Below are positions 1,846-43,514 of a stretch of DNA of 64,000 nucleotides, piece after piece. The first letter of the stretch is position 1; each line of letters begins with the position of its first letter. A program made the translations under genes and the position numbers. The notes beneath the pieces are model-generated. The model was not told the DNA's origin and ran no database searches. It worked only from the letters and a program-made list of their open reading frames with translations. This stretch comes from a virus, in the IMG/VR virus record IMGVR_UViG_3300027896_000024, positions 18,929 through 82,928 of that record; one strand, 5' to 3'.

Positions 1846-2490
1846 CGAGGTTAAGGATATGAGAACGAGAACAAGCAAAAGGGAAACAAACCAAAGGCCA
1901 GAGGGGACAAGAAACCCGTCCTCGACCGGCGCGGCTTTCCCGGAGGTGGGGTTCTCGTCGAGCTTGAGCAGCCATCGCACCCTAGTTTTCTAGGCGCAGG
2001 TGGCACGGCGATCGATGATCCTAATTCGGGCTTTTGAGACTCCAAGCCGGGGCGACACGGTGAACCCGGAAGGAACAAATCGGAGAAAGCGGCTAGGTCG
2101 GCCTTAAGACTTTCACCTAAAGAAATCAGGCGAGTAGGGGAAAAGAGAGACGGGGAGACCCGGAGCATCGCGAAATCCTTTTCCAGCAAAAAGCCGGGTG
2201 AATAAAGGATCCGAGCAAAGCGAATCTGAGAGACGGCCAAATGACCCAGTGAGGGGAGGTCGTAAACCAGATGAGTCGAGCGGAGTTCCTGGAAGGGGTA
2301 ACGTCCCTAATTAGAGCGTGGGTACCTGAAAAATTCTTTCCCGTTTTGGTGGTCCGGTGGAAGGGATAAAATCTAAGGTTAGCTAATTAGCAAAAGCGAT
2401 AGACTCCGACCGCAAGTGCAGAGTTCCCGGCTATGCGGACGCCAAGCGAAAGCTCGGTAGGTTTTCTCTCAAATCTCCTGTCGAGTTTTA
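1846..2490 (+). ncRNA. candidate large structured non-coding leader RNA
   Basis: ~640 nt between the promoter and twister copy 1 with no convincing + strand gene; several hairpins (GCCATCGCACCCTAG-TTTT-CTAGGCGCAGGTGGC, CGGG-GAGA-CCCG, AGC-GAAA-GCT). Confidence 0.45.
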
Positions 2491-2551
2491 GCAGAGGGCA
2501 ATCAGGTTGTGAGACCTGGTTGTAATGCACGGTTAGGTCCCAAGTCCTAAC
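2491..2551 (+). ncRNA. twister ribozyme, permuted (open at P5 position), copy 1; predicted cut 2523/2524
   Basis: GCA GAGGG; P1 CAATCAGGT/ACCTGGTTG; TAA TGC AC; P4 GTTAGG-TCCCAA GT-CCTAAC. Confidence 0.88.
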
Positions 2552-2570
2552 ATCAAAAGGAGAGAACAAC

Positions 2571-2744
2571 ATGAAAAACAAAACATGGCCAAACGAAAAA
2601 GACGTTTGCTATGATTGCGGAAGCAACATTCCAGGACATCATACTCCGTCATGCGATTTTGCGGAACCTGATGACAAGCGCGATTTACCTGAGCAGCCTG
2701 GTACTCAATGGTGGACACGTGAAGTACCTGCGGAGTTGAAATAG
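2571..2744 (+). CDS. hypothetical 57-aa protein with CxxC..HH...C
   Basis: AAGGAGAG RBS; MKNKTWPNEKDVCYDCGS...; TAG stop overlaps ribozyme copy 2 (below ORF-track cutoff). Confidence 0.7.
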   Translation: MKNKTWPNEKDVCYDCGSNIPGHHTPSCDFAEPDDKRDLPEQPGTQWWTREVPAELK

Positions 2745-2808
2745 CAGAGGGCCGGCGTAAGCCGGTAATGCACTTGCCGGGGGCACCGGCAATCGGTCCC
2801 AAGTCCGA
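2744..2808 (+). ncRNA. twister ribozyme copy 2 (with P3); cut 2766/2767
   Basis: P1 CCGGC-GTAA-GCCGG; TAATGC AC; P3 TTGCCGG/CCGGCAA; P4 TCGG-TCCCAA GT-CCGA. Confidence 0.88.
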
Positions 2809-2854
2809 ACAAGCACAGGGAACAAAACAACACAAAAAGAAAGAGAGAAATCAA

Positions 2855-3229
2855 ATGACGACTTCGAAAAATACGACCACTGCAACCGCAACTGCAACCG
2901 CTCCTGAAACCACGGCCCCGGCAGCAGCTCCAAAGGCTCCGACCCAGGCCAAACCGGTCGCCACCAAGAAAGCGGCCGTCAAGAAGGTCTTTATCTTCGT
3001 CGCGGTGGAACCGGACCTGTACCGGCTCACAATCGGATCGAACGCGGACTCGTCCAAGATTCGTAAGCTGCGTAATCACAACGCCAAGGAGATCAAGCAG
3101 GCTGTTGAGAACGCTTCGAACTTCGCGGGCCGGCCGCCCAAGCCGATCACGTTGAAGAAAGCGGATCTGAGCAAGTTCGGTCCCAAGGCCGCGCCGTTCA
3201 CGGGTTTGAAGGCTTTCCGGATTGCGTAG
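2855..3229 (+). CDS. hypothetical basic protein with Thr/Ala-rich N-terminus
   Basis: MTTSKNTT...; purine-rich RBS region after copy 2. Confidence 0.7.
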   Translation: MTTSKNTTTATATATAPETTAPAAAPKAPTQAKPVATKKAAVKKVFIFVAVEPDLYRLTIGSNADSSKIRKLRNHNAKEIKQAVENASNFAGRPPKPITLKKADLSKFGPKAAPFTGLKAFRIA

Positions 3230-3234
3230 TTCCT

Positions 3235-3291
3235 GCAGAGGGGGTCGGCTTCGGCCGACCTAATGCACATGCTGGGTCCCAAGTCCCAGCA
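3235..3291 (+). ncRNA. twister ribozyme copy 3; cut 3261/3262
   Basis: P1 GGTCGGC-TTCG-GCCGACC; TAATGC AC; P4 TGCTGGG-TCCCAA GT-CCCAGCA. Confidence 0.9.
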
Positions 3292-3311
3292 CTTCAAAAA
3301 GGAGAGACAAC

Positions 3312-3452
3312 ATGAAGAAGTTCTTTATTTGGTTATTTCTGATGTGGGCCGTACTTCACTTCGGAGCCAAGTGGGGCAAGGAAAACCAGGCGAAGGTGGA
3401 ACAGCAGATTCACGAGTCAGGAATATTCCAGGTTGCGAATATCAACAAATAG
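3312..3452 (+). CDS. 46-aa membrane-anchored peptide
   Basis: GGAGAG RBS; MKKFFIWLFLMWAVLHFGAKW hydrophobic N-terminus; TAG overlaps copy 4. Confidence 0.65.
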   Translation: MKKFFIWLFLMWAVLHFGAKWGKENQAKVEQQIHESGIFQVANINK

Positions 3453-3509
3453 CAGAGGGCCAGGGTTCACGTCCCTGGTAATGCGGTAGGTCGGTCCCAA
3501 GCCCCGACC
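3452..3509 (+). ncRNA. twister ribozyme copy 4; cut 3479/3480
   Basis: P1 CCAGGG/CCCTGG; TAATGC GGT pairs with loop GCC (compensatory); P4 GGTCGG/CCGACC. Confidence 0.85.
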
Positions 3510-3590
3510 ACAACGAATCATTCATTCCACAACACAACAAAACGGCCCAGGGCAAGGTAGGGCTGGAAAACCACAAAAGGAGAGACAACA

Positions 3591-4055
3591 ATGACCGAGA
3601 TCAAAACAAACAAAGGCACGTTTGAACTACCGGCCGGTGTTACCTTATCGGATTTAAAATATCCGTCTTGGAAAAGTTCCAAGCGGTTTGATTATTCCGA
3701 GGTTACCAAGCTGGGCCTGGATCATTCGGATTTGGAGTTAGATTTCTGGTACGTAAATTCAATTGGCTGGTGCCTTCCGACTTTACTTATTCACAGGGCC
3801 GGACGGAGATCAGCACCGGGAACAACGGACAGAACGTATGCGGTTGGTGTAAACGGAAATCATTACCGCATCGGCCATGGACCACACGTTCAGGCTGAGG
3901 TTAAGGTGTACGTCAACAAGGCAAATTTGGATCGCCTTCGAAAGTACATCGACCTTCGGAAGTCGGGTGCGGTACACGCCAACGAAACCCGGGATCGCAT
4001 TTCAACACGGCGTATGAACACTATGAATCGTCGGAGCAGCTTATTTGGATTTTAG
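3591..4055 (+). CDS. hypothetical protein
   Basis: 154-aa ORF with AGGAGAG RBS; TAG overlaps copy 5. Confidence 0.75.
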   Translation: MTEIKTNKGTFELPAGVTLSDLKYPSWKSSKRFDYSEVTKLGLDHSDLELDFWYVNSIGWCLPTLLIHRAGRRSAPGTTDRTYAVGVNGNHYRIGHGPHVQAEVKVYVNKANLDRLRKYIDLRKSGAVHANETRDRISTRRMNTMNRRSSLFGF

Positions 4056-4120
4056 CAGAGGGGGGCCGAAAGGCCCTAATGCCCACCGGATATAGGATCC
4101 GGTCAGGTCCCAAGGCCTGA
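4055..4120 (+). ncRNA. twister ribozyme copy 5 (with P3); cut 4077/4078
   Basis: P1 GGGCC-GAAA-GGCCC; TAATGC CC pairs with loop GG (compensatory); P3 ACCGGAT/ATCCGGT; P4 CAGG/CCTG. Confidence 0.9.
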
Positions 4121-4158
4121 GGGTATTACCAAAAAAGAGAGATTAAGGAGACAATACA

Positions 4159-4878
4159 ATGAGCAAAAAGCAGAATAACGGCACTGATGATGAATCATTG
4201 GTATTCGCTGGCAAGGAGCTCACGTTGGAAGATGAGATGAACATTCTCAAGGGCGGGACAGTAGGCCTGGAACAGTTCCTCGAAAACTTCCAGTTTCTGA
4301 TTTTCGTCCTGGACGAGTCGGGTTCGATGCAAGACCGGCTGCCGAGTGGAGATACTCCGAAGCGTGAGGTTCAGAAGCGGATTATCAAACGGTATGTGGA
4401 CGAGAAGATCGGACGCAAGGCCGGCACGATGAAGATCGGTGTTGTCAGCTTCGATGATGAAGCGTCCGTTTGGCTCCAGGGTTCGTCGGATCCGGTTGCA
4501 ATCAAGGCCGCGGCGGACCAGTGCAGGGGCGGTGGCGGTACGCACCTCGGGCGCGGAATTCTCAAGGGTCTTTCATTACTCCACCGGATGAAAGATTATA
4601 TTCCCCGTCTCGTTCTTACGTCGGATGGTGAGGCACATGATCCGGCTCAGGCAATCGCCGGAGCGGAAGCGGCCAAGGCCAAGGGCGTCGTAATCGACAC
4701 GGTGTACATTGGCCCTGGTGGGGGCGGTGACGTATATGCGGATAATGCGGCTGATCTTATGCGGAGAATCGCTGAGATCACCGGCGGCGTGTTCGAGCGC
4801 GTAAACAATCAGTCGGAATTCGAAACCAAGTTTTTCGATGTGATCAAGCGCCCGTTGCTTGCAACCAGTTTGAAGTAG
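4159..4878 (+). CDS. von Willebrand factor A (vWA) domain protein
   Basis: MIDAS motif LDESGSM, GGGT, LTSDG, IDTVYIG, IAEITGG. Confidence 0.85.
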   Translation: MSKKQNNGTDDESLVFAGKELTLEDEMNILKGGTVGLEQFLENFQFLIFVLDESGSMQDRLPSGDTPKREVQKRIIKRYVDEKIGRKAGTMKIGVVSFDDEASVWLQGSSDPVAIKAAADQCRGGGGTHLGRGILKGLSLLHRMKDYIPRLVLTSDGEAHDPAQAIAGAEAAKAKGVVIDTVYIGPGGGGDVYADNAADLMRRIAEITGGVFERVNNQSEFETKFFDVIKRPLLATSLK

Positions 4879-4883
4879 TCCTC

Positions 4884-4936
4884 GCAGAGGGGGGCCGGTA
4901 ACGGCCCTAATGCACGGGCCGGTCCCAAGTCCGGTC
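4884..4936 (+). ncRNA. twister ribozyme copy 6; cut 4908/4909
   Basis: P1 GGGCCG-GTAA-CGGCCC; TAATGC AC; P4 GGCCGG-TCCCAA GT-CCGGTC. Confidence 0.9.
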
Positions 4937-4969
4937 GTCATTACAAACCACAAAAAGGAGAGAACGATC

Positions 4970-5671
4970 ATGGTATATGCTGATGATTTTCCAGAGCAAC
5001 AAAAACAACAGGAAGCGCGGAAAGCGGCTATTAGGGCTCACAGGGCCGAGATGGACGCTAAGATCGAACAGTGCACGTTGGCCTTAGTCGTCGCGTTGGA
5101 AAACTATGGCCACAAGGTAGAACGGCATGGGCACAAGCAGGACGACAAAGTGATCCTCGGCGACATCTATCATATTGACGGGGTGTACTTTTGGGATCTG
5201 CAGTTCTACGAACAAGGGCTTTACGCTCCTGGTGGATATCTCAGGGGTGCCGGAAATGGTAAACTGGCATTGCATTATCAGGATCCGAATTCAGTGCTTC
5301 AAAGGCGCGTTATCATTCGTGAGAAGAAAAGCGGTTTTGATTACAACACAATCGCCGCTACGTTGATAGCCTTGGCAGCCCCGTTAATACCGGCTGCTAA
5401 GGAACGGTTGGAGCGGGAAGCGAAGCAGGCCGAGGCCAACGCCAAAGCGGAACAGATCCGGGACATGGCGAGCGCTTTACAGCAACAGTTTCGGAGCAAA
5501 ACGTTGACGAACTTGAGTATTCAATATCAGAACTGGTGCGGCAAATTTGAGGTTTCGTTCAATACGGAGACCTTGGAAGAGGCGCAAGCAATTCTGAGCC
5601 GGTTGGTTCCGAATAAAACGGAATCGCCCGACGACGCAATCGAAGAAGCGAGGCGTAGAATACACGGTTAG
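4970..5671 (+). CDS. hypothetical protein
   Basis: start MVYADD after AAGGAGAG RBS; TAG overlaps copy 7. Confidence 0.75.
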   Translation: MVYADDFPEQQKQQEARKAAIRAHRAEMDAKIEQCTLALVVALENYGHKVERHGHKQDDKVILGDIYHIDGVYFWDLQFYEQGLYAPGGYLRGAGNGKLALHYQDPNSVLQRRVIIREKKSGFDYNTIAATLIALAAPLIPAAKERLEREAKQAEANAKAEQIRDMASALQQQFRSKTLTNLSIQYQNWCGKFEVSFNTETLEEAQAILSRLVPNKTESPDDAIEEARRRIHG

Positions 5672-5745
5672 CAGAGGGGGGCGAGCTAACACAGTCGCCC
5701 TAATGCACTAGTACATTCTTTAAGTACTAATGGTCCCAAGTCCAT
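5671..5745 (+). ncRNA. twister ribozyme copy 7 (with P3); cut 5701/5702
   Basis: P1 GGGCGA/TCGCCC; TAATGC AC; P3 TAGTAC/GTACTA; P4 ATGG/CCAT. Confidence 0.87.
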
Positions 5746-5773
5746 AAACAAAAAAGAGAGAAGAGGAGATAAC

Positions 5774-6538
5774 ATGAACCCAAGGAAGCTGTTGGCACAG
5801 CTCAGGCGGGTGTATTCACAGTTTACCAAAATGGCTAAGCAGCCGATCGAGGACAGGAACAAGTTGCTCGTATCTGCGGTGGCCATAATGGATGCTGTAG
5901 TGCGCCTGGCAATTGTTCAATACAAATCGCAACTGCCTCAGAACGCGGCCAAGCTTTTCGATATCGCGGGAAAGTGCAGAGCTAGGGCGATGAGTACAAC
6001 ATTCAACGAAGAGAAGGATTTATCACTTCGGATAGCACTTCTGAAAATGGAACAAATGATTCCCATGTTAAGCCCGCCGGCGTTTCAGCTCTATATTGAC
6101 AAGTTCAATCTTAGGGCGTCGGCACATAAAGAGGGCAAGTCGGCCAAAGGTCCCAAAGCACCACGGGCACCAAGAACACCGGCGAGCGCCCAGCCTCAAA
6201 ATCAGTATGGTGTACGGCGGAAGTTTTCTCCGGTGCCTCAAATAGTACCGGTTGGTTCGCCGCTGATTATCAACATTCTATTTGCTAATCTAAAGACCCC
6301 GTTCAGGGCGTCTTCGGCAAAGGCAAAGGCATTTCGTTTCTGGTTCGAGGACTTCCGTACTAAGGAAGAGGTCGCTCAATACCTGAACCAGGTTACCAAC
6401 GGGAAGGGCAAATCGCTAGTCTGGTTACTCTGGAACAAGAGGAACGGCGGCGACGAGTCGATGCACTGGTCGTTTATTCAAAAGGGCAACAAGAGCAAGC
6501 TGGTTGTATGCGATCCGACCAAGCTTCCGAAACCATAG
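5774..6538 (+). CDS. hypothetical protein; C-terminal domain paralogous to 15377-16192
   Basis: 254 aa; TPFRASSAKAKAF...GGDESMHW. Confidence 0.75.
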   Translation: MNPRKLLAQLRRVYSQFTKMAKQPIEDRNKLLVSAVAIMDAVVRLAIVQYKSQLPQNAAKLFDIAGKCRARAMSTTFNEEKDLSLRIALLKMEQMIPMLSPPAFQLYIDKFNLRASAHKEGKSAKGPKAPRAPRTPASAQPQNQYGVRRKFSPVPQIVPVGSPLIINILFANLKTPFRASSAKAKAFRFWFEDFRTKEEVAQYLNQVTNGKGKSLVWLLWNKRNGGDESMHWSFIQKGNKSKLVVCDPTKLPKP

Positions 6539-6601
6539 CAGAGGGGCAGCAGGCCTGAGGAACCTGCTGCTAATGCACATTCCGGGTCCCAAGTCCCGGA
6601 A
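6538..6601 (+). ncRNA. twister ribozyme copy 8; cut 6571/6572
   Basis: P1 GCAGCAGG/CCTGCTGC; TAATGC AC; P4 TTCCGGG/CCCGGAA. Confidence 0.9.
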
Positions 6602-6621
6602 CACAAAAAGGAGAGAGCAAC

Positions 6622-6840
6622 ATGGCAGAGATTTTGAAGTGCGAGAAATGCGGCCAAAAGAATAGGGTCGATATATCGCGTTTAGCTCAGTCTATGTGTG
6701 CTAAGTGCGGTTGTCCTTTATTTATTCGGCCAGCACCCGGAAGAGATCTTATTGGAGATCTGGCCAACAAGCTGGAAGCGGCAGCTAAGAATGAGAGGTT
6801 CCGTAGAACGCAGGAATACATTTATAGAAGTCGTAACTAA
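6622..6840 (+). CDS. zinc-ribbon protein (TrxC N-terminus-like CxxC..QKNRV..CxxC)
   Basis: CEKCGQKNRV...CAKCG. Confidence 0.7.
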   Translation: MAEILKCEKCGQKNRVDISRLAQSMCAKCGCPLFIRPAPGRDLIGDLANKLEAAAKNERFRRTQEYIYRSRN

Positions 6841-6893
6841 GCAGAGGGGGGCCGAAAGGCCCTAATGCACGGCTTCGGTCCCAAGTCCGAAGC
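6841..6893 (+). ncRNA. twister ribozyme copy 9; cut 6863/6864
   Basis: P1 GGGCC-GAAA-GGCCC; TAATGC AC; P4 GCTTCGG/CCGAAGC. Confidence 0.9.
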
Positions 6894-6916
6894 GTCATTA
6901 CAAAAAGGGAGACAAC

Positions 6917-7390
6917 ATGGAACCAAGACAGTTCGAGGCACAATGCTACAAAACACTGGAAGAGTACGATCGTACTTATTTCGGCAGCGTAGGCAGCGTG
7001 ATCGGGATTCGCCTTACTCGGTTTGCTAGAGATTACGAAGCACTCCAGCAGTTCGAGGCAATAACGCGAAAACGATTCGGGTTGGTTATGGTGACGCTGG
7101 GTATGTACGATTCGGAGTCTCGCCTGGTGTATCTTAATTACCACGTCAGGCACCTGGTAAATAAAGGCTACTTTACCACGGAGTTGCGGGCGGTCTTATA
7201 CCATGAGTTGATTCATGCGGTCTTGTGCAATGCGCATCAGCCTATCAGGTTAGGGCTGTACCGCTGTTATTCACAAGGCGGCCACGGACCTGCTTTTCAA
7301 AAGCTCTGGAACAGTAATAATGAGCTTCGAGAGGTAAACGTGCAGCCGTTATGTTCCGCGGTTTGGGACAGAATGGAGAAGCGGCTATGA
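6917..7390 (+). CDS. SprT-like zinc metalloprotease
   Basis: LYHELIH (HExxH) plus downstream HGPAFQ. Confidence 0.7.
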   Translation: MEPRQFEAQCYKTLEEYDRTYFGSVGSVIGIRLTRFARDYEALQQFEAITRKRFGLVMVTLGMYDSESRLVYLNYHVRHLVNKGYFTTELRAVLYHELIHAVLCNAHQPIRLGLYRCYSQGGHGPAFQKLWNSNNELREVNVQPLCSAVWDRMEKRL

Positions 7391-7968
7391 ACATCCAGGC
7401 GTTTTTCGATCAGCTTAAACTCGAACTCTCATTACTTAAACACACGGTGGATGATGAGTTCGAGATGTTTGATAATAGGCCGCTTCGGTTAACGGTCGCA
7501 GGTTCCTTGGGATCAGATTCCCAGGCAATCGCATTCGGTTTCTACGGAGATCGAAAAGTGCTTCGGGGTGCTATGAGCCCCGAGGCTATTGCTTCCGCGA
7601 TCCATATGTATCTGCAAACCAGGAACGTAGGTACCGGGGCAAAACCACAACCGAACAGAGACATTCTCAATACCAAACGGCCGTACGATCAGTACAAACA
7701 GTCACAGCAACAAAGACCTCATACAAAACCGATCAAGCCTCAGGAACCTAAACGTCGAGTTTGGGCAATGGGGCCGTCACAGTTTCAGGGTACACCGCTA
7801 GACCAGTTAAGGTTGGCGGACTTCGATGGTAAGGTTCAAACAGTCACAGTCAAGGGTGAGATCAAGACGGCATCAGACCTGGTGTTGGCGGACTTGCCCG
7901 AAAAACAACAGCTTATGCTCAAGATACTTGAGCGGGCACTCAATAGGTTGAACAAACAGTTATCCTAA
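7387..7968 (+). CDS. hypothetical protein
   Basis: ATGA overlap with the upstream stop. Confidence 0.65.
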   Translation: MNIQAFFDQLKLELSLLKHTVDDEFEMFDNRPLRLTVAGSLGSDSQAIAFGFYGDRKVLRGAMSPEAIASAIHMYLQTRNVGTGAKPQPNRDILNTKRPYDQYKQSQQQRPHTKPIKPQEPKRRVWAMGPSQFQGTPLDQLRLADFDGKVQTVTVKGEIKTASDLVLADLPEKQQLMLKILERALNRLNKQLS

Positions 7969-7983
7969 AAAGGAGAGAACAAC

Positions 7984-8385
7984 ATGGCTAAGCGAGTTTT
8001 GACTTGCGGTAATGAGGATTGCAAGCAAAAGAATAACGTCGATATGGACCGCCTGAAGGCGGCCTACTGCGGGAAGTGCTCGTTTCCGATGTACATGGCC
8101 GTCGAACTCCAAGTTCGTGAGGACGAGGAGGAGGAATCGGTCGATGATCTGATTGACGAAATGGCCGGTGCGGAAGAGGACGATGAACCGGAAGAGGACG
8201 AGGAAGATGATTCGGAAGAGGAAGCCGAGGAAATCTTTCTCTGCCCGCTTTGTGGACAGACTGAGGTACCTGAGGAAGGGCGGGCCTGCTCCAAGTGCCT
8301 AGCCGCTCAGAAAAAAGCGGCCAAGGGCAAGGCAGGGGCGAAAAAACCCGCATCCAAGGGCAAGACCAAACCGAAAGTAAACTAG
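7984..8385 (+). CDS. double zinc-ribbon protein with acidic linker
   Basis: CGNEDCKQKNNV..CGKC, D/E tract, CPLC..CSKC; TAG overlaps copy 10. Confidence 0.75.
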   Translation: MAKRVLTCGNEDCKQKNNVDMDRLKAAYCGKCSFPMYMAVELQVREDEEEESVDDLIDEMAGAEEDDEPEEDEEDDSEEEAEEIFLCPLCGQTEVPEEGRACSKCLAAQKKAAKGKAGAKKPASKGKTKPKVN

Positions 8386-8443
8386 CAGAGGGGACCGGGC
8401 CAGCACGGCCGGTCTAATGCGCAGTCCCGGTCCCAAGTCCGGG
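8385..8443 (+). ncRNA. twister ribozyme copy 10; cut 8415/8416
   Basis: P1 GACCGG/CCGGTC; TAATGC GC; P4 CCCGG-TCCCAA GT-CCGGG. Confidence 0.87.
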
Positions 8444-8492
8444 GCGCATTGTTAGTACTAACATTCATTCTCACAAAAGGGAGAAAACGAAC

Positions 8493-8681
8493 ATGGCAAT
8501 CAGTGCTGAAATCAAGGGCAAGAATTTGGTAGTGACGATTCCGGTTAACGATCCGCCTGAGCCTTCCGGTTCCGGCAAGTCGTTGGTGGTTGCGTCTTCG
8601 CACGGCAATCAGGAGACGACCTGCAAGGTGAACGGGAAGAACCTGGTGATCGGCCTGAACGCTTACATCCGCAACAAGTAG
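8493..8681 (+). CDS. small hypothetical protein
   Basis: PSGSGKSLVVASSHGN..IGLNAY; good RBS. Confidence 0.75.
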   Translation: MAISAEIKGKNLVVTIPVNDPPEPSGSGKSLVVASSHGNQETTCKVNGKNLVIGLNAYIRNK

Positions 8682-8740
8682 GCAGAGGGGGGCGGGCTAG
8701 TATAGCCGCCCTAATGCACAAGCCGGTCCCAAGTTCGGCT
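8682..8740 (+). ncRNA. twister ribozyme copy 11; cut 8712/8713
   Basis: P1 GGGCGG/CCGCCC; TAATGC AC; P4 AGCCGG/TCGGCT. Confidence 0.87.
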
Positions 8741-8760
8741 ATTCAAAAAGGAGAGAACCT

Positions 8761-9027
8761 ATGGTACACGTTCCAAGGCAGTTGACTACGGAAGAGGCTA
8801 TCATCGAGGCGTACGAGCTTACCTGGGATCAAATAGCCCCAGATATTCTAGGTCGCGATGAGACCGCCAGCGTCGATCGGGACACCGTCATGGATTGCTG
8901 CGCGGATCACGTTCGTATTCACGGCGCTATGTCCAAGGAAGTAGAGGCAGCGTACAAGCTGCTATCCTGGGAAGAAAAGAAGCGGTTGCTCAGGAAGGCG
9001 TTCCCGCACAAGACGTACGGATACTAG
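8761..9027 (+). CDS. hypothetical protein
   Basis: AAGGAGAG RBS, 88 aa. Confidence 0.7.
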   Translation: MVHVPRQLTTEEAIIEAYELTWDQIAPDILGRDETASVDRDTVMDCCADHVRIHGAMSKEVEAAYKLLSWEEKKRLLRKAFPHKTYGY

Positions 9028-9037
9028 GGAGGTTTAT

Positions 9038-9238
9038 ATGGCAGAGATCTCCAGATGGGCAAACACTCAAGCTACCGCAGAGGTTGCTTGTCCCCGTTGT
9101 GGTATGCAGGCCGGTGTTGAGTGCAGAACTCCAAAGATGCGTAGGTTATTCACAATTCACACCGAACGAGGGAATGCCTATTTTGCCAAGATAGGTCGTG
9201 ACGAATGGCTTCGTAGGTACTCAATATCAAAACACTAG
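9038..9238 (+). CDS. zinc-finger protein
   Basis: CPRCGMQAGVEC...HTER; GGAGG RBS; TAG overlaps copy 12. Confidence 0.7.
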   Translation: MAEISRWANTQATAEVACPRCGMQAGVECRTPKMRRLFTIHTERGNAYFAKIGRDEWLRRYSISKH

Positions 9239-9292
9239 CAGAGGGCGGCCGGCAACGGCCGTAATGCACAGCTCGGGTCCCAAGTCCTGAGT
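9238..9292 (+). ncRNA. twister ribozyme copy 12; cut 9262/9263
   Basis: P1 CGGCCG-GCAA-CGGCCG; TAATGC AC; P4 GCTCGGG/CCTGAGT. Confidence 0.9.
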
Positions 9293-9312
9293 ATAAAAAA
9301 GGAGAGAACAAC

Positions 9313-9756
9313 ATGGATACAATCATCGAAGATAAACATTCGTTGGCACATCTTGAACAGGTCGTGCGTAAATTGTTCGAGAGGTTGGATGTTTCCGAAC
9401 TTCGTCGTGGTCCGCATCCGATACCAACAGGGATAGGCGAAATCAAGATTGACGATGAAACGCTGGACGTATTCGGCGGCCTGTGGGCGGTTGCGTGCGA
9501 GATCACAGTAACCCGAAAGTATTTGGGTGGCCGGGGCCGCAAAGCAAAAGTTCCTGGATTTGTGGTCGGCGTCGTAGTACATCATCATAATTATCCGCAT
9601 GAACCGGATGATTACGAACCTGTTGAAACGGGCCAGTTCGAGTCACCTTACAAAGCCGCAGAGGCTCTGGCATTGTTGTATTACCAAGACCGTATCAATA
9701 GTGCGATGGAGGACATCAGCATGGCAGAGGTTGCGGAGCAGTTCCACGAAGATTAG
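9313..9756 (+). CDS. hypothetical protein
   Basis: 147 aa, cassette RBS, TAG overlaps copy 13. Confidence 0.75.
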   Translation: MDTIIEDKHSLAHLEQVVRKLFERLDVSELRRGPHPIPTGIGEIKIDDETLDVFGGLWAVACEITVTRKYLGGRGRKAKVPGFVVGVVVHHHNYPHEPDDYEPVETGQFESPYKAAEALALLYYQDRINSAMEDISMAEVAEQFHED

Positions 9757-9806
9757 CAGAGGGGGGCCGCAAGGCCCTAATGCACGAGCTGGTCCCAAGT
9801 CCAGCT
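9756..9806 (+). ncRNA. twister ribozyme copy 13; cut 9778/9779
   Basis: P1 GGGCC-GCAA-GGCCC; TAATGC AC; P4 AGCTGG/CCAGCT. Confidence 0.9.
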
Positions 9807-9835
9807 AGGCAGATCACAAAAAGGAGAGAACAACG

Positions 9836-10372
9836 ATGGCTGATAAAGAGGTAGAGGCGACATATACCGAGGAGCCGTCTAAGTATCCTGTATTCGTGCA
9901 GGAGCTTATGGATCGCTTCAAGGCCGTTGAGCGCAAGCTAACGGAAAACAAGTATCAAATGGACGCAGAGTTAAAGCGTACCCAGGAGCGCCTGGAGGCC
10001 AGTTATACCAAGCAGCGGGATTTGGACGGGCAGAAGTTAATCGTTCATTTCCTGGAAGTGTTGGATAATCTGGATTGGGCATTATCACATGCTACTGAAT
10101 CGGCCGACAGCTTTCATTCGGGTGTACGTCTAGTGGCGGATCTGTTTCGGAAGAAACTCCAGCAACTAGGCGTAGTACTCGTACCGTTGAAGGACAAGCC
10201 TTACGATCCGGAATTCGCGCAAGCTATCTTTGCACAAGAGGTAGATAAGCCCGAGTTACACGGCATCGTGCTTCAAGAACACGTCACTTGCTACGCGATT
10301 GATGCGACTATCATCCGTCCTGGTCAAGTGGTCGTAGGCAAGAAGCGGGAGGTGTCTAATGGTAGCGGTTAA
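9836..10372 (+). CDS. grpE: GrpE-like nucleotide exchange factor
   Basis: long N-terminal helix, FLEVLDNLDWAL, GV..(L)QQLGV, PYDPEFAQAI, IIRPGQVVV. Confidence 0.8.
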   Translation: MADKEVEATYTEEPSKYPVFVQELMDRFKAVERKLTENKYQMDAELKRTQERLEASYTKQRDLDGQKLIVHFLEVLDNLDWALSHATESADSFHSGVRLVADLFRKKLQQLGVVLVPLKDKPYDPEFAQAIFAQEVDKPELHGIVLQEHVTCYAIDATIIRPGQVVVGKKREVSNGSG

Positions 10373-10610
10373 GTGCTGTAAGTGTTTTCGGAATACCAAC
10401 AAGTTCCGGTGTTGTTCCTGCGGTCACAGTATTTGTACTTCATGTAAAGAGCAGACTCGAAAATTACCGGTTCGCAAGTTGGTGAGTGACGAGGACTTGT
10501 TATTCCTGTTGGAAGTATTTGAACGGTCTGGCCAGTCATTATCCTATCGGGCCAAGGTGTACCGAGTAGAGGCTATGCATCGCGGTCTTATCAAGAAGGA
10601 GGCCAAGTGA
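10359..10610 (+). CDS. Cys-rich small protein
   Basis: CCKC..CCSCGHSICTSC. Confidence 0.65.
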   Translation: MVAVKCCKCFRNTNKFRCCSCGHSICTSCKEQTRKLPVRKLVSDEDLLFLLEVFERSGQSLSYRAKVYRVEAMHRGLIKKEAK

Positions 10611-10810
10611 AAAGGAAGAGGTTGATGGTCGTTGTACAACCGGTAACAAATCTCCCGGGCTTGTATACCTGGTCAATACAACGGGCTGGCCGGGTGATTG
10701 CGATATACCCGGAGACGTACAAAACAAAGGACTCGGCTATTCGTTATGCTGAGCCCTTTGCTCAGGAAATCGGAGCAACATTCGCTACCGAAAAGGAGGT
10801 ACAGGGTTAG
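10607..10810 (+). CDS. small hypothetical protein
   Basis: GTG start with GGAGG RBS; TAG overlaps copy 14. Confidence 0.65.
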   Translation: MKRKRLMVVVQPVTNLPGLYTWSIQRAGRVIAIYPETYKTKDSAIRYAEPFAQEIGATFATEKEVQG

Positions 10811-10868
10811 CAGAGGGGACCGGTCTGAGGGCCGGTCTAATGCGCATGGTCGGTCCCAAGTCCGACCA
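10810..10868 (+). ncRNA. twister ribozyme copy 14; cut 10838/10839
   Basis: P1 GACCGGTC/GGCCGGTC; TAATGC GC; P4 TGGTCGG/CCGACCA. Confidence 0.88.
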
Positions 10869-10880
10869 AGGGAGGCACCT

Positions 10881-11549
10881 ATGAGGCGTATTTCTCGTGA
10901 GGGGTGGCGCCGGCGTAAGATCGCTGAGTACTACCAACGGCGGGACGATGAACGAATACAAAAAAGGGAGGACAACATGATTACACCAGAATATGTTGAA
11001 TGGGAAAAGGCTCAGGAGCGGGCAGCTTTTGAGTCTAAGATGCGCAGGGACGAGGCTTTGGAAAAGCAGTCCCAAGTGCAGCAGAGGAAGACAATGGCGG
11101 ATACGAGCAATCAGGATTCAGCCGTGCCGGCACAGCTCAAGGACTTGATGTTGATATTCGCTGGTAATGCATATTTCACAATTCGAAACAACACAACAGG
11201 CAATCGCTTCACGTTTCGCGTATCGGTTTCAAAACCGAATCCACAATTTCCGAACCCGGTTCACTTCGTTAGTGTACTCTGCGGGCCGGATAACCGTACG
11301 AACTATGCGTATATCGGGTTCGTCAGCAAAGCACTTCAATATCGGCACGCAGTCAAGTCAATCATCACGGAACAAGCGGTATCTGTTCAAGCTTTCAAAT
11401 GGTTACTGGCTAGGGTAGCTACTAAGCAGCCCTTGCCTCCCGAAGTGCAGATCTGGCACGAGGGTCGGTGTTGCCGATGTGGCCGAATGCTAACAGTTCC
11501 TGAGTCCATTGAGCACGGCCTAGGGCCGGAATGCTACGGGAGGATATGA
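10881..11549 (+). CDS. phage protein with C-terminal DUF6011-like zinc finger (alternative start 10977)
   Basis: CCRCGRMLTVPESIEHGLGPEC. Confidence 0.7.
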   Translation: MRRISREGWRRRKIAEYYQRRDDERIQKREDNMITPEYVEWEKAQERAAFESKMRRDEALEKQSQVQQRKTMADTSNQDSAVPAQLKDLMLIFAGNAYFTIRNNTTGNRFTFRVSVSKPNPQFPNPVHFVSVLCGPDNRTNYAYIGFVSKALQYRHAVKSIITEQAVSVQAFKWLLARVATKQPLPPEVQIWHEGRCCRCGRMLTVPESIEHGLGPECYGRI

Positions 11550-11779
11550 TGCGAGTTACTCAGATGGAACGCGCTGCGATTCTCCAGATGTTTGTACTCC
11601 CGGATGGTGTATCGTATCTCGGGGAGCAACCGGATCCGGCTGGCGGGTCGATATCACTTTATCACGATGTAGTCACAGGGTCGTCATTCATGGTTCACGA
11701 AGGCGAAAACATCGAGCAGGCGGTAAACAGAATCCGAGAATCATTTTTCCCGGAGGAATTCAAGGTTTGGGAAGCATAG
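11546..11779 (+). CDS. hypothetical protein
   Basis: ATGA overlap; TAG overlaps copy 15. Confidence 0.65.
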   Translation: MMRVTQMERAAILQMFVLPDGVSYLGEQPDPAGGSISLYHDVVTGSSFMVHEGENIEQAVNRIRESFFPEEFKVWEA

Positions 11780-11875
11780 CAGAGGGGGTGGTTGCCTTTA
11801 CAAAAGTAGGCATTAAATGGTAGGGCCTGATCCTATCAGCCACCTAATGCGGCAGTCCTGGTCCCAAGTCCCAGG
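11779..11875 (+). ncRNA. twister ribozyme copy 15 (expanded P1 insert); cut 11845/11846
   Basis: P1 GGTGGTTG/CAGCCACC with branched insert; TAATGC GGC pairs with loop GTC; P4 CCTGG/CCAGG. Confidence 0.82.
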
Positions 11876-11899
11876 CGCAGAAAATGGTTGTTGTCTCCT

Positions 11900-11951
11900 A
11901 GGCGGGCAACGGGTCTGGTGCGTTGCCAGATCCGACCCGCCCTTTTATTTT
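11900..11951 (+). terminator. intrinsic terminator ending the ribozyme unit
   Basis: GGCGGG..CGGGTCTGG/CCAGATCCG..CCCGCC then TTTTATTTT. Confidence 0.7.
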
Positions 11952-11962
11952 AGGAGTTCGCT

Positions 11963-12171: not shown

Positions 12172-13758
12172 ATGGTGTTAGCTTATGCTCCTGGGCTTAG
12201 TGTGTACATAGTGTTCTGTACGATCAAGGAAAAGAGTATTCCTGCTCGTGCGGGATTTGTATACAACAAGCTAGTTCGTAGGCGGTGGGCTACTAAAGAT
12301 CCGAATGTGGCAAATATCCTTTGGAAGTATGCTGTGCCTGCTTGTAAGGTTCAAATAGGCAAGGATCTTGTTGCGTCAAAAGTAATCCAGAAAAAATCAA
12401 AGGCAGTTAGTTCTGTTACGGAATATCCCTGTCCAGAAGGTATTGATTATCTCCCGTTTCAAAAGGCCGGAATAGACTTCATGCTGGAGCGAGATAGTGT
12501 ATTCTGTGCGGATGATATGGGTGTGGGCAAGACGATAGAGGCATTGGGTGTACTCAATACGGATACGTCGTTAATATCTATTTTGGTAGTGACAAAGGCA
12601 GTACTCAAGATAAACTGGTTAAGGGAGATACAAAAGTGGCGGGCTCGTAAAATGTCGGTGGGTATTGTCTGGCCAAATCATACGGAATTACCGAAGACAA
12701 ATATCGTCGTAATTAACTATGACTTGTTAGATAGATTTCACTTGTCCGGATTACGTAATAGAAAATGGGACTGTATCATCCTGGACGAAGGGCACTATCT
12801 AAAGAACCCGAAAAAGAAACGCACTCGTGCTGTATTTGGATATAATGACAGGAAGCGTCACTTCGTTTGTCTACCGTTAGAAGCTAGGCGTAAAATGGTG
12901 TTAACTGGAACGCCTATGGAGAACCGGCCAAAAGAATTATTTTCATTGCTTCATTGGTTAGATCCCATAGCTTGGCCCAGCTGGTTTAGATATGCGCAAA
13001 GATACTGCGATCCCAAGTTCAATGGCTTCGGAACCACGTATAAAGGGGCGTCAAATGTAGCGGAATTGAGGGCACGCCTTCGGGGTACACTTATGATACG
13101 GCGGGAGTTTACCGAGGTGTTTCCTGAGCTGCCGCCGGTTAGATACCAGATAATCGAAATACCCGTACAGAGTTCTACAATAAAAAAGCTTGTAACCCGT
13201 GAGCTGTATGATTACAATCAATTTTTACAAAAGGGAGTTTCGCGCAAGGTTGCTTTTGCAGAGATGTCGGCGTTAAGGCACCAGTTAGCCGTCTATAAGC
13301 GACCGTTAATCCAGTCATATCTCGAAGGCCTTCGTGAGGAGTCCCCAAGTAGAAAACTGATAGTGTTCGGGCATCATCACGATGTACTTGATGGCCTGCA
13401 TTTATCATTTCCTGATTCAGTTTTAGTCAGGGGTGGACAAGATGCTACCGATCGTCAGAGATCAGTAGACAAGTTTCAAAACGATATACGGTGCAACATG
13501 TTTCTTGGGTCGATTGCAGCTGCGGGGGAGGGCTTGAATTTGTACGCATCCAGTTTAGTTATATTCGGGGAATTCGATTGGCGTCCTGGTAAGATACTTC
13601 AAGCTATCGGGCGCGCTTTGAGACTGGGACAAAAGGATCGCGTTCTGATTCAATATCTCGTACTGGCAGGTTCACTTGATTTCAAGCTCATTACAACGTT
13701 CGTGAACAAGCACATAGTAAATAAGGAGATTCTCGGTGACAAAAGGGAGATCATTTGA
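12172..13758 (+). CDS. SNF2/SMARCAL1-like SF2 helicase
   Basis: ADDMGVGKT, ILDEGH, LTGTPMEN, GEGLNL, QAIGRALRLGQ. Confidence 0.9.
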   Translation: MVLAYAPGLSVYIVFCTIKEKSIPARAGFVYNKLVRRRWATKDPNVANILWKYAVPACKVQIGKDLVASKVIQKKSKAVSSVTEYPCPEGIDYLPFQKAGIDFMLERDSVFCADDMGVGKTIEALGVLNTDTSLISILVVTKAVLKINWLREIQKWRARKMSVGIVWPNHTELPKTNIVVINYDLLDRFHLSGLRNRKWDCIILDEGHYLKNPKKKRTRAVFGYNDRKRHFVCLPLEARRKMVLTGTPMENRPKELFSLLHWLDPIAWPSWFRYAQRYCDPKFNGFGTTYKGASNVAELRARLRGTLMIRREFTEVFPELPPVRYQIIEIPVQSSTIKKLVTRELYDYNQFLQKGVSRKVAFAEMSALRHQLAVYKRPLIQSYLEGLREESPSRKLIVFGHHHDVLDGLHLSFPDSVLVRGGQDATDRQRSVDKFQNDIRCNMFLGSIAAAGEGLNLYASSLVIFGEFDWRPGKILQAIGRALRLGQKDRVLIQYLVLAGSLDFKLITTFVNKHIVNKEILGDKREII

Positions 13759-14227: not shown

Positions 14228-14686
14228 ATGCAACTGAAAAAGAAGTTCAGGTTTGAGGCGAGTCATATACTATCAAAGCACCCGGGCAAGTGTTCTCGGT
14301 TACACGGCCATAGCTGGGTGTTACACGTGATGGTGGAAGGCCCTGTAAATCCAGATACCGGGTTTGTCATGGACTATGGGGATATTTCCAAGGCAGTGAA
14401 GCCTATCGTTGAGGATCTGGATCATAGGCATTTGGGAGTCTGGGATGTGTTCGCGGAGGACAGTAATATAGGTACTGCGCGTTGCCGGGCACTCCCGCTT
14501 GAGTTCTATTCTACGTCAGAGAATTTACTGATGAGGATTGCAGAACTGCTTATGATCTCATTGCCTCAGTGGTCAGCACTCAGCCTGGAAGAAACGTGTA
14601 CGTCGGAGGCATTGCTACTTCGGTGTGAATATGACCAGTTCGTAATGGATCAGAAAGAGAGGAGCGATGCAGCTGCTCGTAAATGA
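14228..14686 (+). CDS. queD: 6-carboxytetrahydropterin synthase
   Basis: FEASH, CSRLHGHSW, LDH, TSENL. Confidence 0.9.
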   Translation: MQLKKKFRFEASHILSKHPGKCSRLHGHSWVLHVMVEGPVNPDTGFVMDYGDISKAVKPIVEDLDHRHLGVWDVFAEDSNIGTARCRALPLEFYSTSENLLMRIAELLMISLPQWSALSLEETCTSEALLLRCEYDQFVMDQKERSDAAARK

Positions 14687-15374
14687 GATATTCAGGTCAG
14701 TACAAGGGGAAGGCCTACTAATGGGCCAGCCTTCCGTATTTCTCAGGTTGTCGTTGTGTAATGTCAATTGTCCGATGTGCGATACGGATTATCACCAAGG
14801 AGTCAAGGTGAGTCTTTCCGATATTGTAAAGGCTATTACCGGTCCGTATGCACGCGGCGGAATTCGTCATTTGGTGATTACAGGTGGCGAGCCGTACATA
14901 CATCCGGCATTGTCGGAGTTTCTGGCTACGATGCGGGAGCTACATCGCGATTGGCACATCACAATCGAAACGTCAGGTTCTATAGTTCCGGGCACTGTTC
15001 TGAATTTGGACTTGTTATCACTATCCCCGAAGTTTATGTCGCTAAAGCCGGCAGAAAATTCTCACATGGGATTGAATATTCTGAAGGAGTCATTCCTGCG
15101 TATCCTGGAACTGCCTCGTAAAGAGAATAGCTGCCAGGTTAAGCTAGTTTGGACAGGAGATCCTGTGGATGTTCCAGACTGGTTACCTGATATGATATCG
15201 GACTTAGCACAGAACAGTATTCCGGTATTCTTTCAGCCTATGACAGATGGCAGAGAGTTCGAATTAAATTCTTACTTAAAACTGTTTGCCAAAGTCACGG
15301 CAGCCGTTCAAAATACGTTCGGTGCATATCCTCGGACGTTACCGCAGTTGCACAAGTTCTGTAACTGGAGGTAG
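14667..15374 (+). CDS. queE: 7-carboxy-7-deazaguanine synthase (radical SAM)
   Basis: EIFRSVQGEG, CNVNCPMCDT, ITGGEP, IETSG, LSPK, PQLHK. Confidence 0.92.
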   Translation: MQLLVNEIFRSVQGEGLLMGQPSVFLRLSLCNVNCPMCDTDYHQGVKVSLSDIVKAITGPYARGGIRHLVITGGEPYIHPALSEFLATMRELHRDWHITIETSGSIVPGTVLNLDLLSLSPKFMSLKPAENSHMGLNILKESFLRILELPRKENSCQVKLVWTGDPVDVPDWLPDMISDLAQNSIPVFFQPMTDGREFELNSYLKLFAKVTAAVQNTFGAYPRTLPQLHKFCNWR

Positions 15375-43300: not shown

Positions 43301-43514
43301 GGATATGCTATCGAGGGACCCGTCGATGCGTGCAGCACTTGAGGAATTCATGAACACAGCTCCTGGACGATCGAAGTTATCGATGTACGCGGTTTGGGAC
43401 AAGAAAGAGGCATTCGCAGAGGGCTTTGTACGGATGTACCAAGGCGGAAACGGACCGTATGAAAAAGCGCTGAAGCGGTTTCTATCAAAAGCGACAGGGA
43501 GAAAGTTTATATGA
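37398..43514 (+). CDS. MuF head-morphogenesis polyvalent protein: MuF + Nudix + PI3K/HipA-like kinase + two ADP-ribosyltransferases + zincin
   Basis: RANTIARTE..C..C..PAAHPNCRC; FPKGG..KEVFEELG; WYIK..NEVLA..WLANWD..RVDTGG; WRGL..TSSS..EQEV; WRGI..TSTS..QQEF; HEVGH..EAFAE. Confidence 0.85.
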   Translation: MPKEPMWKTLQRIADRAAPKMQQAFLKAAASAQTKTKMTALTDAIRKGDFAKAWQALDWERTVNAELTPELQQALLGIVKTAGIETMTDLIQGTPSFELMEAPQSVYDYVNKRTGELITNINRDTLMGVRDAVREAFLMGKGLPARQIFTTLENAANIKESLGLNAKQMKALNKYRATLKQQGVSQQAYQKMTDRYKTTLLKQRANTIARTETIQAACEGQRQIWEQAADDGSIDAKRWEVEWLVTPDDITCKHCMTMRNKRRPIKGVYTAGFFAGKKGPAAHPNCRCSERLVAKKGIKFPMQGAPVMNQAAAEEAYAAASAGGTEMTTPMYNEEEMAIRSAYEYETASELGLATPEGGWQSLDVSTFAQTPDSVNLAFTQTKLQLSKTRRDLRKIDKAMKADPTNYTLKGQWADLSVKKVQLLKEFNQYKQKYPGVKLLSSQEAKAVANKLISPEAEAKLAAMAPPGYGIKGQPVIAPAAPTPAAVTQVPDKPTMLPNTPKEGMFEANKSVTWAKGDSQGAGYVLNGTNLQEEQYGFWKQESDVDLIGEPKVPPVTKQGQKVSTGAVVVEPDGRIWVVEPTGHYGGYENTFPKGGWTDKNLSLQQNAMKEVFEELGIKIKITGYLGDFEGQTSNTRYYLAQRTGGAPWVPGKESQAVKLMTVDDAQGALNVKRDQDILAKVKTIMGKGEVYTIPPKPQSMTPEDYLYTKNQVEMLNRDLANRELTLEAKATALHDLEHYQKEIAGYAAKDAEAAAKTIAEAQVQTQEAIAKTLAQQAAVAVPTPSIIPAKIGPPVQGTVNLPSYIEGSGKISPGQILKAKKALAGKTVTLKPFVQDVIKPGMSIAQAEKTASLSRRGIRKFNKELSILEHAGMDVTEGKIVLKEMKIFHQELLKQLKTYSATNGNVVGMLKPPGLPSIVKISGIPKSVPTQVYSAPVAKTPLYATKVSVAPGEQLQAEKMVKIGGQKGSNPGGSYRDNQGQEWYIKQPKSESHAKNEVLAGKLYELAGVDVPQMELAQINGVTGVASRMVAGVSQVGAAEIGKLVGTYEGFATDAWLANWDVVGLGYDNLLAKAGQAIRVDTGGSLLYRAQGTLKGSAFTSDVKELESLRNSYKNAQSAKVFENMTKEKLVASMEKVANIVRTDIEKMVMLYGPGTAAERGELANKLLSRQTDIRKKMDVLKQEIADEQRMAAIPKTPMMPNPLKTKMYSSRQQFLNTLPRNEADSLVSFIKDFTGSGYTTIREFQKYRDKVMQQWEKYYDRSHATRMAAEYDKNISNYTKMINSTKTHEGQVWRGLRSVQKSAAKANYREGQTIEWTQLTSSSTSESKAQGFGDHVLFRIQTKNNGQFIGDISYYGREQEVMLRNNTKYRVMKVTDGYQGKWLLIDLQEANDLEQASYRYLVSKTGKQALSELAQTELLLKQDLQDAMYAGQFSKAASIRNQLGSIKIQRRQIANMESTRTIVDEAPKLIKTEVSLKGVPKRVIKDYDENVQRFKTAEKDYLKLKAKYDQFKGWDVKEDMQMARERMQYTRRDIQTAEADYPELRSYGAARLAAKKPVVGPKIVSTAPAVPVPINKPVPGVVDFMNKMPSDHATSFKKFMQEYTAQSFKQYREFQVNPGPQLKAWTKVFGAEKAQQLELEMRRNFEYLDQAFQKVKLTPGELWRGISTPFSKVKDVYTEGNVVRWDQITSTSAKEGEASVFIENSQGNDTGFLFKIKTHTGGLDVNKVSLSKGQQEFLLPQGLSFRVTRVTREEGITTVELEETSASVSASVVKQLKPTTHPGVKVVPAKKVPKEYKELAGYAKNEVSGREVSVGVQKPTELAKLPKAEGPSTVRPAVLKSDWKDTATLAKAKEQTASMFPKMELNIEGMETHVANKVMKQMSSISNDIPELKQFVKGMSNGWPPPAGVKQTAMCAAGPGGEIWVNPRVFNSIQGEKEIKVAAQNNWSVARNQQEAITHEVGHLVADMLSRDPSMRAALEEFMNTAPGRSKLSMYAVWDKKEAFAEGFVRMYQGGNGPYEKALKRFLSKATGRKFI

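Follow-up and report, generated by a model that had tools for sequence, protein, structure and literature searches.

We found that 15 copies of the twister self-cleaving ribozyme punctuate one block of small genes in a 64-kb stretch of DNA from an uncultivated tailed phage. Judging from the sequence, these ribozymes most probably cut a single ~10-kb early transcript into a leader, 14 messenger RNAs (mRNAs) and a tail. The stretch, which we refer to as the window, comprises bases 18929-82928 of the 82,928-bp IMG/VR record IMGVR_UViG_3300027896_000024, a genome rated 100% complete. Coordinates below are those of the window unless another record is named. The analysis followed up a sequence-only reading of the same DNA, in which an array of twisters processing one phage operon had been proposed.

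We assigned the identity of the ribozymes with Rfam cmscan. Starts, cut positions and pair counts were taken from a parse anchored on the conserved motifs; a MAFFT alignment of the 15 copies misaligns the variable hairpins. Fifteen sites between 2490 and 11874, all on the + strand and all intergenic, matched the Rfam family Twister-P5 (RF02684), which has a gathering cut-off of 37.6 bits. Twelve of the 15 copies were above this cut-off, with scores of 43.5-56.2 bits. The other three (copies 5, 7 and 15) scored 37.1, 37.5 and 36.7 bits (E 3e-4 to 5e-4 for the window), because the model penalises a P3 insert or an enlarged P1. The copies are as follows, each with its helices (P), loops (L) and pseudoknots (T) where these are particular to it.

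2491 to 2551, + strand: twister 1 (Rfam match 2490-2549), 45.3 bits; predicted cut after 2523; P1 of 10 bp, P4 of 6 bp, T2 AC/GU.
2744 to 2808, + strand: twister 2 (Rfam match 2743-2808), 44.7 bits; predicted cut after 2766; P3 hairpin of 7 bp.
3235 to 3291, + strand: twister 3 (Rfam match 3234-3288), 50.8 bits; predicted cut after 3261.
3452 to 3509, + strand: twister 4 (Rfam match 3451-3507), 46.2 bits; predicted cut after 3479; L4 of 9 nt, T2 of 3 bp (GGU/GCC).
4055 to 4120, + strand: twister 5 (Rfam match 4054-4119), 37.1 bits, 0.5 under the cut-off; predicted cut after 4077; P3 of 7 bp, T2 CC/GG.
4884 to 4936, + strand: twister 6 (Rfam match 4883-4934), 54.3 bits; predicted cut after 4908.
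5671 to 5745, + strand: twister 7 (Rfam match 5670-5745), 37.5 bits, 0.1 under the cut-off; predicted cut after 5701; P3 of 6 bp.
6538 to 6601, + strand: twister 8 (Rfam match 6537-6598), 50.5 bits; predicted cut after 6571.
6841 to 6893, + strand: twister 9 (Rfam match 6840-6890), 48.0 bits; predicted cut after 6863; P1 identical to that of twister 5.
8385 to 8445, + strand: twister 10 (Rfam match 8384-8442), 53.6 bits; predicted cut after 8415; T2 GC/GU.
8682 to 8740, + strand: twister 11 (Rfam match 8681-8738), 43.5 bits; predicted cut after 8712; closing pair of P4 is G-U.
9238 to 9292, + strand: twister 12 (Rfam match 9237-9289), 49.7 bits; predicted cut after 9262.
9756 to 9806, + strand: twister 13 (Rfam match 9755-9804), 48.0 bits; predicted cut after 9778.
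10810 to 10868, + strand: twister 14 (Rfam match 10809-10865), 56.2 bits; predicted cut after 10838; T2 GC/GU.
11779 to 11875, + strand: twister 15 (Rfam match 11778-11874), 36.7 bits, 0.9 under the cut-off; predicted cut after 11845; P1 is an enlarged, branched element of 58 nt, L4 of 9 nt, T2 GGC/GUC.

There were no matches to other Rfam families and no decayed twister copies in the window at E<=1, and no further twisters were found with Rfam elsewhere in the complete 82.9-kb genome. The + strand of the genome contains the first conserved motif of the ribozyme, GCAGAGGG, 20 times, and the - strand does not contain it at all; about 1.3 occurrences are expected per strand.

The conserved core is intact in every copy. 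Each element consists, in order, of GCAGAGGG, a P1 hairpin, UAAUGC, an optional P3, and P4/L4. P1 is closed as a hairpin and the termini lie at the position of P5, which is the type-P5 permutation. The core (GCAGAGGG, UAAUGC and GGUCCCAAG; 23 nt) is invariant in 15/15 copies, with zero substitutions over 345 positions, and agrees with the Rfam consensus. A U followed by AA, the predicted site of cleavage, lies immediately 3' of the 3' strand of P1 in all 15 copies. Copies 2, 5 and 7 have a clean P3 hairpin of 6-7 bp, and P1 ranges from 5 to 10 bp. A P5 helix was not found; that is, the 12 nt 5' of GCAGAGGG and the 12 nt 3' of P4 pair no better than mismatched flanks.

The stems differ in sequence from copy to copy and remain paired. 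The 15 copies all differ in their P4 stem, and only twisters 5 and 9 have the same P1, which makes 14 P1 hairpins in all; each of these stems is fully paired. In the outer 5 bp of P1, 75 of 75 cells pair, with 2-4 pair types per position. Positions 1-5 of P4 likewise pair in every copy, and positions 3-5 show as many as 5 pair types. We compared this to a null in which the 3' strands were dealt out among the 15 copies (2000 shuffles). Pairing fell from the observed 100% to 56% for P1 and 65% for P4, and none of the 2000 shuffles reached the observed value. The T2 pseudoknot also varies on both sides and pairs in every copy: AC/GU in 10 copies, GC/GU in two, and CC/GG, GGU/GCC and GGC/GUC in one each. 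The copies with GGU/GCC and GGC/GUC have an L4 loop that is one base longer. P2 (GCA/UGC) and T1 (GGG of L1 with CCC of L4) are invariant, and are thus consistent with the structure and uninformative about it.

These features are those of the class. In twisters (Roth et al. 2014, as reviewed in PMC5408937), P1, P2 and P4 are essential and P3 and P5 optional, there are two pseudoknots, and at least 10 bases in L1 and L4 are conserved at >97%. The scissile bond joins a less conserved U that adjoins P1 to a highly conserved A (PMC5408937). The elements described here have in common with RF02684 the L1 and L4 bases, P1, P2 and P4, the optional P3, T1 and T2, the cut site and the position of the termini. 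They differ in that there is no P5 helix, the stop codon of the gene upstream usually lies in the 5' edge, and there are 15 copies in what is probably one transcription unit. We infer that they are catalytically intact type-P5 twisters that lack a P5 helix and that they cleave.

What the sequence-only reading had observed of the ribozymes was reproduced in full. It had placed 15 copies at the starts given above, on one strand and all intergenic, and had proposed the Rfam twister models as a check. Cmscan and the parse returned the same copies, RF02684 matched at 15/15 sites (12 above cut-off), and the match coordinates bear out the strand and the intergenic positions. The parse also recovered every one of the 15 cleavage positions that had been predicted and the covarying T2 variants (AC/GU in most copies, with copies 4, 5 and 15 differing). 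The description of the elements as a twister core with P1 closed as a hairpin holds for all features of the class that can be seen in silico (conserved loops, stems, pseudoknots and the scissile U-A). The statement that the stems diverge and stay paired agrees with the dealt-out comparison.

The array appears to be laid out as one transcription unit. The elements at its two ends are as follows.

1812 to 1840, + strand: promoter of sigma-70 type, TTGACA-17 nt-CATAAT; the only 11/12 match in a scan of the first 14 kb.
1847 to 2490, + strand: purine-rich leader of ~650 nt with no + strand open reading frame (ORF) of >=40 amino acids.
11899 to 11952, + strand: terminator-like element, a 10-bp inner stem inside a GGCGGG/CCCGCC outer stem, then CUUUUAUUUU.

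A terminator-like hairpin with a T-run lies just 5' of the promoter, at about 1650-1697. Inside the array there are 18 promoter-like matches, all weak (9/12), compared to 11.8 +/- 3.5 in shuffles. At the other end, the region 11846-11955 folds into a GC-rich compound hairpin of -42 kcal/mol. The placement of the array between one strong promoter and one terminator, as first proposed, is supported by the 11/12 sigma-70 match and by the terminator-like hairpin and U-run.

The leader has no Rfam match. We considered that it might be structured and rejected the idea: the 677-nt leader, taken to the first cut, folds no better than shuffles (z -0.69). It contains an ORF of 32 amino acids at 2271-2369 with GGAGG 5' of it. 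The ~105-nt tail (11846-11952) contains GTTGTTGTCTCCT, a 13-mer complementary to the consensus ribosome-binding region of the operon. We also rejected the tail as an antisense RNA. Exact matches are only 9-10 nt long and fall in four start regions of the array and one elsewhere, and the 3' part of GTTGTTGTCTCCT is paired in the base of the terminator, so that the evidence is weak.

The ribozymes are distributed by the length of the spacers between genes. Each of the 13 spacers of 70-138 nt contains exactly one ribozyme, and there is no ribozyme at the six junctions where genes overlap or are <=15 nt apart. One extra copy lies 5' of the first gene and one 3' of the last. At 10 of the 14 gene ends, the G of the UAG stop codon is the first base of GCAGAGGG, which is the first base of P2. 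The stop codon directly abuts GCAGAGGG at two of the 14 and lies 5 nt upstream at the remaining two. Downstream of each ribozyme there is an A/C-rich spacer and then the ribosome-binding region AAAAAGGAGAGAACAAC-ATG; the cut and the start codon are 42-111 nt apart. A-rich ribosome-binding regions of this type are common to most of the 20 genes.

Based on these results, the simplest notion is that the array processes its own transcript. Host RNA polymerase would start at about 1847 and stop at about 11950, producing a single early transcript of ~10 kb. Each ribozyme would fold as it emerges and cut between the U and the AA of UAAUGC. The products would be a leader of ~677 nt, 14 mRNAs and a tail of ~105 nt. 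In order along the transcript, the predicted mRNAs are 243, 495, 218, 598, 831, 793, 870, 292, 1552, 297, 550, 516, 1060 and 1007 nt long. Ten of them contain a single gene and four contain two or three, for 20 genes in total. These figures reproduce those of the sequence-only reading (218-1552 nt; 10 monocistronic and four multi-gene RNAs; about 20 genes). The genes that would remain joined (9-10-11, 13-14, 16-17-18 and 19-20) overlap or nearly touch, and appear to be arranged as translationally coupled genes are.

The position of the cut determines the ends of each RNA. The cut lies between P1 and P2, and therefore the upstream RNA would end in the P1 hairpin and the downstream RNA would begin with AAUGC. 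At its 5' end, an mRNA would have a 5'-OH, AAUGC, the T2/P4 hairpin, an unstructured A/C-rich spacer and a strong Shine-Dalgarno sequence. At its 3' end, it would have the stop codon, GCAGAGGG, the GC-rich P1 hairpin and a U with a 2',3'-cyclic phosphate. In bacterial RNA decay, a 5'-OH with an adjacent hairpin evades the ribonucleases that are stimulated by a 5'-monophosphate, and neither exonucleases nor polyadenylation act well on a 3' hairpin that lacks a free 3'-OH. Each cistron could thus become a separately stable message with a standard, context-independent 5' untranslated region (UTR), without any host or phage ribonuclease. After cleavage, the two halves of a ribozyme would be held only by P2 and T1. 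Because the products share only these ~6 pairs, they are expected to separate, and the cut would be effectively irreversible.

The single transcript, cleavage in vivo, and the effects on stability and translation are what we infer from this layout. Processing is the most economical explanation because the cores are intact, selection has acted on the fold, all copies are oriented with the coding strand, there is one per long spacer, and there is a single promoter motif and a single terminator motif. Recurrence of such arrays in other phages with different cargo (see below) supports the layout. Several points weigh on the other side. Three copies are 0.1-0.9 bit under the Rfam cut-off. The single-transcript model comes from consensus scans only. 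The stabilising effect of the RNA ends is assumed from general bacterial RNA decay. In addition, a ribosome terminating at the stop codon would cover GCAGAGGG and part of P1. Because the stop codon sits at the 5' edge of the ribozyme, translation could disturb the folding of copies that have not yet been cleaved.

It is also conceivable that the ribozymes are mainly junctions at the level of DNA, that is, universal joints for shuffling small accessory genes. We consider this unlikely, if by no means negligible, and it is compatible with processing of the transcript. Each variable helix (P1, P3 and P4/T2) forms a hairpin within one half of the ribozyme, and what joins the halves (P2 GCA/UGC, T1 GGG/CCC and L1) does not vary; a 5' half should therefore form a working ribozyme with whichever 3' half it meets. 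Copies that resemble each other in the 5' half do not tend to do so in the 3' half (Mantel r -0.02, p 0.46), although the test has little power, as the halves are short and GC-constrained. Twisters 5 and 9 have an identical P1 and unrelated 3' halves, and the same array syntax is found in phages without detectable portal similarity or common array proteins. Two other phage records contain homologues of the DUF6011 gene of the array (43-50% identical), and in both a type-P5 twister comes next, either at once or with one small gene in between. One is in L029 (reverse strand 9191-9772; 50% identical) and one in L074 (reverse strand 8477-9552; 43% identical). In L029 the stop codon of the homologue overlaps GCAGAGGG exactly as in the present array. 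However, the L029 homologue is in a four-gene block between twisters, indicating that unit boundaries are not conserved, and our searches yielded no close relative of this phage in which to see swaps. The invariant stretches, at 6-9 nt, are a poor substrate for homologous recombination, and the covariation reflects selection on an RNA fold, not on DNA. Taken further, twisters without P5 would be the universal joints of a phage gene-cassette system with which unrelated phages trade and reorder early genes, a proposal that we regard as unlikely. If it were true, each gene would be preceded by a 3' half and followed by a 5' half, juxtaposed cassettes would rebuild an active ribozyme, and every traded gene would automatically keep its own processed, hairpin-capped message.

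The remaining alternatives concern what the cuts are for, if anything. Cleavage might be modulated by the terminating ribosome, Mg2+ or a phage protein, so that the array sets relative or timed expression. The stop codons at the edge of P2 (10 of 14 gene ends, with two more abutting) would fit this, as would a TA immediately 5' of GCAGAGGG in 27% of 139 IMG/VR twisters (~6% expected). In addition, the range of P1 lengths (5-10 bp) and the P3 inserts in three copies could tune rates. But compaction could explain the overlap with stop codons equally well, and the 15 copies have no conserved aptamer-like or protein-binding element beyond the core and the ribosome-binding region, making such control, in our view, improbable. 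A role for the excised RNAs as circular mRNAs, with their ends joined by an RtcB-type ligase of the host or by the twister reaction run in reverse and thereby exonuclease-proof, we find very improbable, even though a 5'-OH and a 2',3'-cyclic phosphate suit RtcB ligases (established knowledge; RtcB is cited in PMC8782182). It would be a natural counterpart of engineered twister-flanked expression of circular RNA. Neighbouring ribozymes have 5' and 3' halves that are compatible in sequence, and circular or spliced products have been considered for phage hammerhead clusters (PMC3088659); Perreault et al. sought such products from those clusters and detected none (PMC3088659). The ends of the fragments here have no P5-like pairing (mean duplex energy -1.9 kcal/mol, compared to -1.4 +/- 1.5 kcal/mol for mismatched ends), and halves held by ~6 bp (P2 and T1) after the cut should dissociate and not religate. 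Among the phage proteins there is no RtcB and no member of the RNA_ligase family. A search of the phage with the T4 Rnl1 family was silent, but its controls were silent too, and AAA_33 gave one weak P-loop match, below cut-off. Lastly, self-cleaving ribozymes are often tied to selfish elements (PMC3088659), and the copies might be selfish or relic repeats that have spread through the spacers with no role in expression. This is hardly credible given 0 substitutions in 345 core positions while the stems diverge with compensatory changes, the strict orientation with the coding strand, and one copy per long spacer. There are also no decayed copies at E<=1, and no terminal repeats or target duplications around the units. 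Processing of the transcript into separate messages remains the explanation that we prefer.

The genes that would be carried by the processed mRNAs are small, and few resemble known families. The block and the genes with matches are as follows.

2571 to 11779, + strand: 20 small genes of 46-254 amino acids (ORF list).
4159 to 4878, + strand: VWA protein; Pfam match above gathering score.
6622 to 6840, 7984 to 8385 and 9038 to 9238, + strand: zinc ribbons; Pfam matches.
6917 to 7390, + strand: SprT-like protein; weaker Pfam match.
9836 to 10372, + strand: GrpE-like protein; Pfam E 6e-22.
10881 to 11549, + strand: DUF6011 protein; Pfam match above gathering score.

Only four of the 20 proteins (VWA, a phage zinc-binding domain, GrpE-like and DUF6011) score above the Pfam gathering threshold. 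A SprT-like domain and three zinc-ribbon or RING-type motifs are weaker matches. Pfam gave nothing at E<=0.01 for 13 of the 20 proteins, and 18 lack a PHROG match.

Several of these genes have features of their own. The genes at 6622-6840 and 7984-8385 encode a common zinc-ribbon N-terminus, both with weak matches to Zn_ribbon_Thio2, and contain a DNA repeat (6643-6674 and 8014-8045) that is 78% identical. This pair points to a gene duplication inside the array. The 7984-8385 gene also has an acidic repeat rich in D and E at 8119-8222. The DUF6011 gene has two in-frame starts, at 10881 and 10977, each with its own Shine-Dalgarno sequence. The start at 10977 has the consensus ribosome-binding region of the operon, and the PHROG match to this protein spans only residues 91-222. 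It is possible that the gene produces two isoforms or that its start has been mis-set. In a search of 5.8 billion proteins, the best homologue of the GrpE-like protein was no more than 32% identical. A second contig, probably another assembly of this phage, encodes the identical protein.

Every gene in the genome is on one strand. Downstream of the array there are genes for a SNF2-type helicase, a sliding-clamp-like protein, a family-A DNA polymerase, and RecA-like and SbcC-like proteins. These are followed by the large terminase, the portal, the major head protein and a protein like minor-tail or tape-measure proteins. With DNA-replication genes and then structural genes downstream, the array forms the start of the early region. 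The scan of the large proteins revealed no phage RNA polymerase, which fits the host-type promoter in front of the array.

The helicase encoded next to the array (12172-13758) has relatives that are only 24-35% identical among the viral and metagenome contigs searched, and three loci with such relatives gave zero matches when scanned with Rfam. Among cultured phages, the best match to the portal is 34% identical (Dinoroseobacter phages). Directly 3' of the portal gene, 37398-43514 (+ strand) encodes a multidomain protein of 2038 amino acids. It has a weak match to a Mu F-like head protein (below the Pfam cut-off), a NUDIX domain and an NAD:arginine ADP-ribosyltransferase domain. This protein looks like a packaged, possibly ejected, host-modifying enzyme. 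That its NUDIX domain acts on the 5' ends of RNA, interesting as this would be beside phage messages with a 5'-OH, is pure speculation. In addition, QueC (E 1e-45) and a radical-SAM protein are encoded at 880-1620 and 14667-15374 (both + strand), and suggest 7-deazaguanine modification of the phage DNA.

Arrays of this kind are not confined to the phage described here. A pattern for the exact core matches more than 116 stretches in IMG/VR. Five other IMG/VR phage records contain 13, 20, at least 11, at least 8 and at least 6 twisters that are above the Rfam cut-off. The records with 13 and 20 copies are complete genomes of 89 and 91 kb with terminal repeats, and the other three are fragments. 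The other arrays have the same type of ribozyme, the same exact core and the same layout between small genes. They differ in that neither cargo nor phage lineage is in common, only the syntax: there are no common array proteins and no detectable portal similarity, and the DNA polymerases are ~25% identical. The sequence-only reading had implied that an array of this density was unique. That was overstated, both because of the 13- and 20-copy arrays in complete genomes and because the same processing had been proposed for hammerhead ribozymes in 2011 (PMC3088659).

The closest precedent is in prophages. Perreault et al. (2011; PMC3088659) described multiple hammerheads that flank single genes or short, varying blocks of genes. 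All copies of the tandem and triple hammerheads cleave in vitro and in Escherichia coli, and the proposed role was to cut long phage transcripts into mRNAs of operon or gene length (PMC3088659). A 2019 review (PMC6765202) raised the same processing idea for twisters and called their purpose unresolved, and the role of bacterial and phage twisters has been described as speculative (PMC5408937, PMC6765202). In both systems, phage genes of varying identity are flanked, singly or in short blocks, by ribozymes on the coding strand. They differ in number and setting. In the hammerhead clusters two or three ribozymes were tested, in prophages of cultured bacteria. Here there are 15 twisters, one per long spacer, in the complete genome of an uncultivated tailed phage, where they bound 10 single genes and four blocks of 2-3 genes and are predicted to cleave. 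We found no description in the literature of twister arrays with at least 10 copies per operon, which is not proof of absence, as the primary twister papers were reached via reviews. The array is a large and very regular case of an arrangement that has been proposed for phages since 2011, and not a new element or principle.

Engineered insulators provide a second comparison. In operons built with RiboJ-type ribozymes or processed by Csy4, cleavage between cistrons produces a defined, context-independent 5' UTR. Those systems were designed, whereas the array described here is natural and would also leave a hairpin at each 3' end. It is thus a natural counterpart of the ribozyme insulators used in synthetic operons, and a compact, clonable test bed for whether cutting by ribozymes sets mRNA stability, translation or gene modularity.

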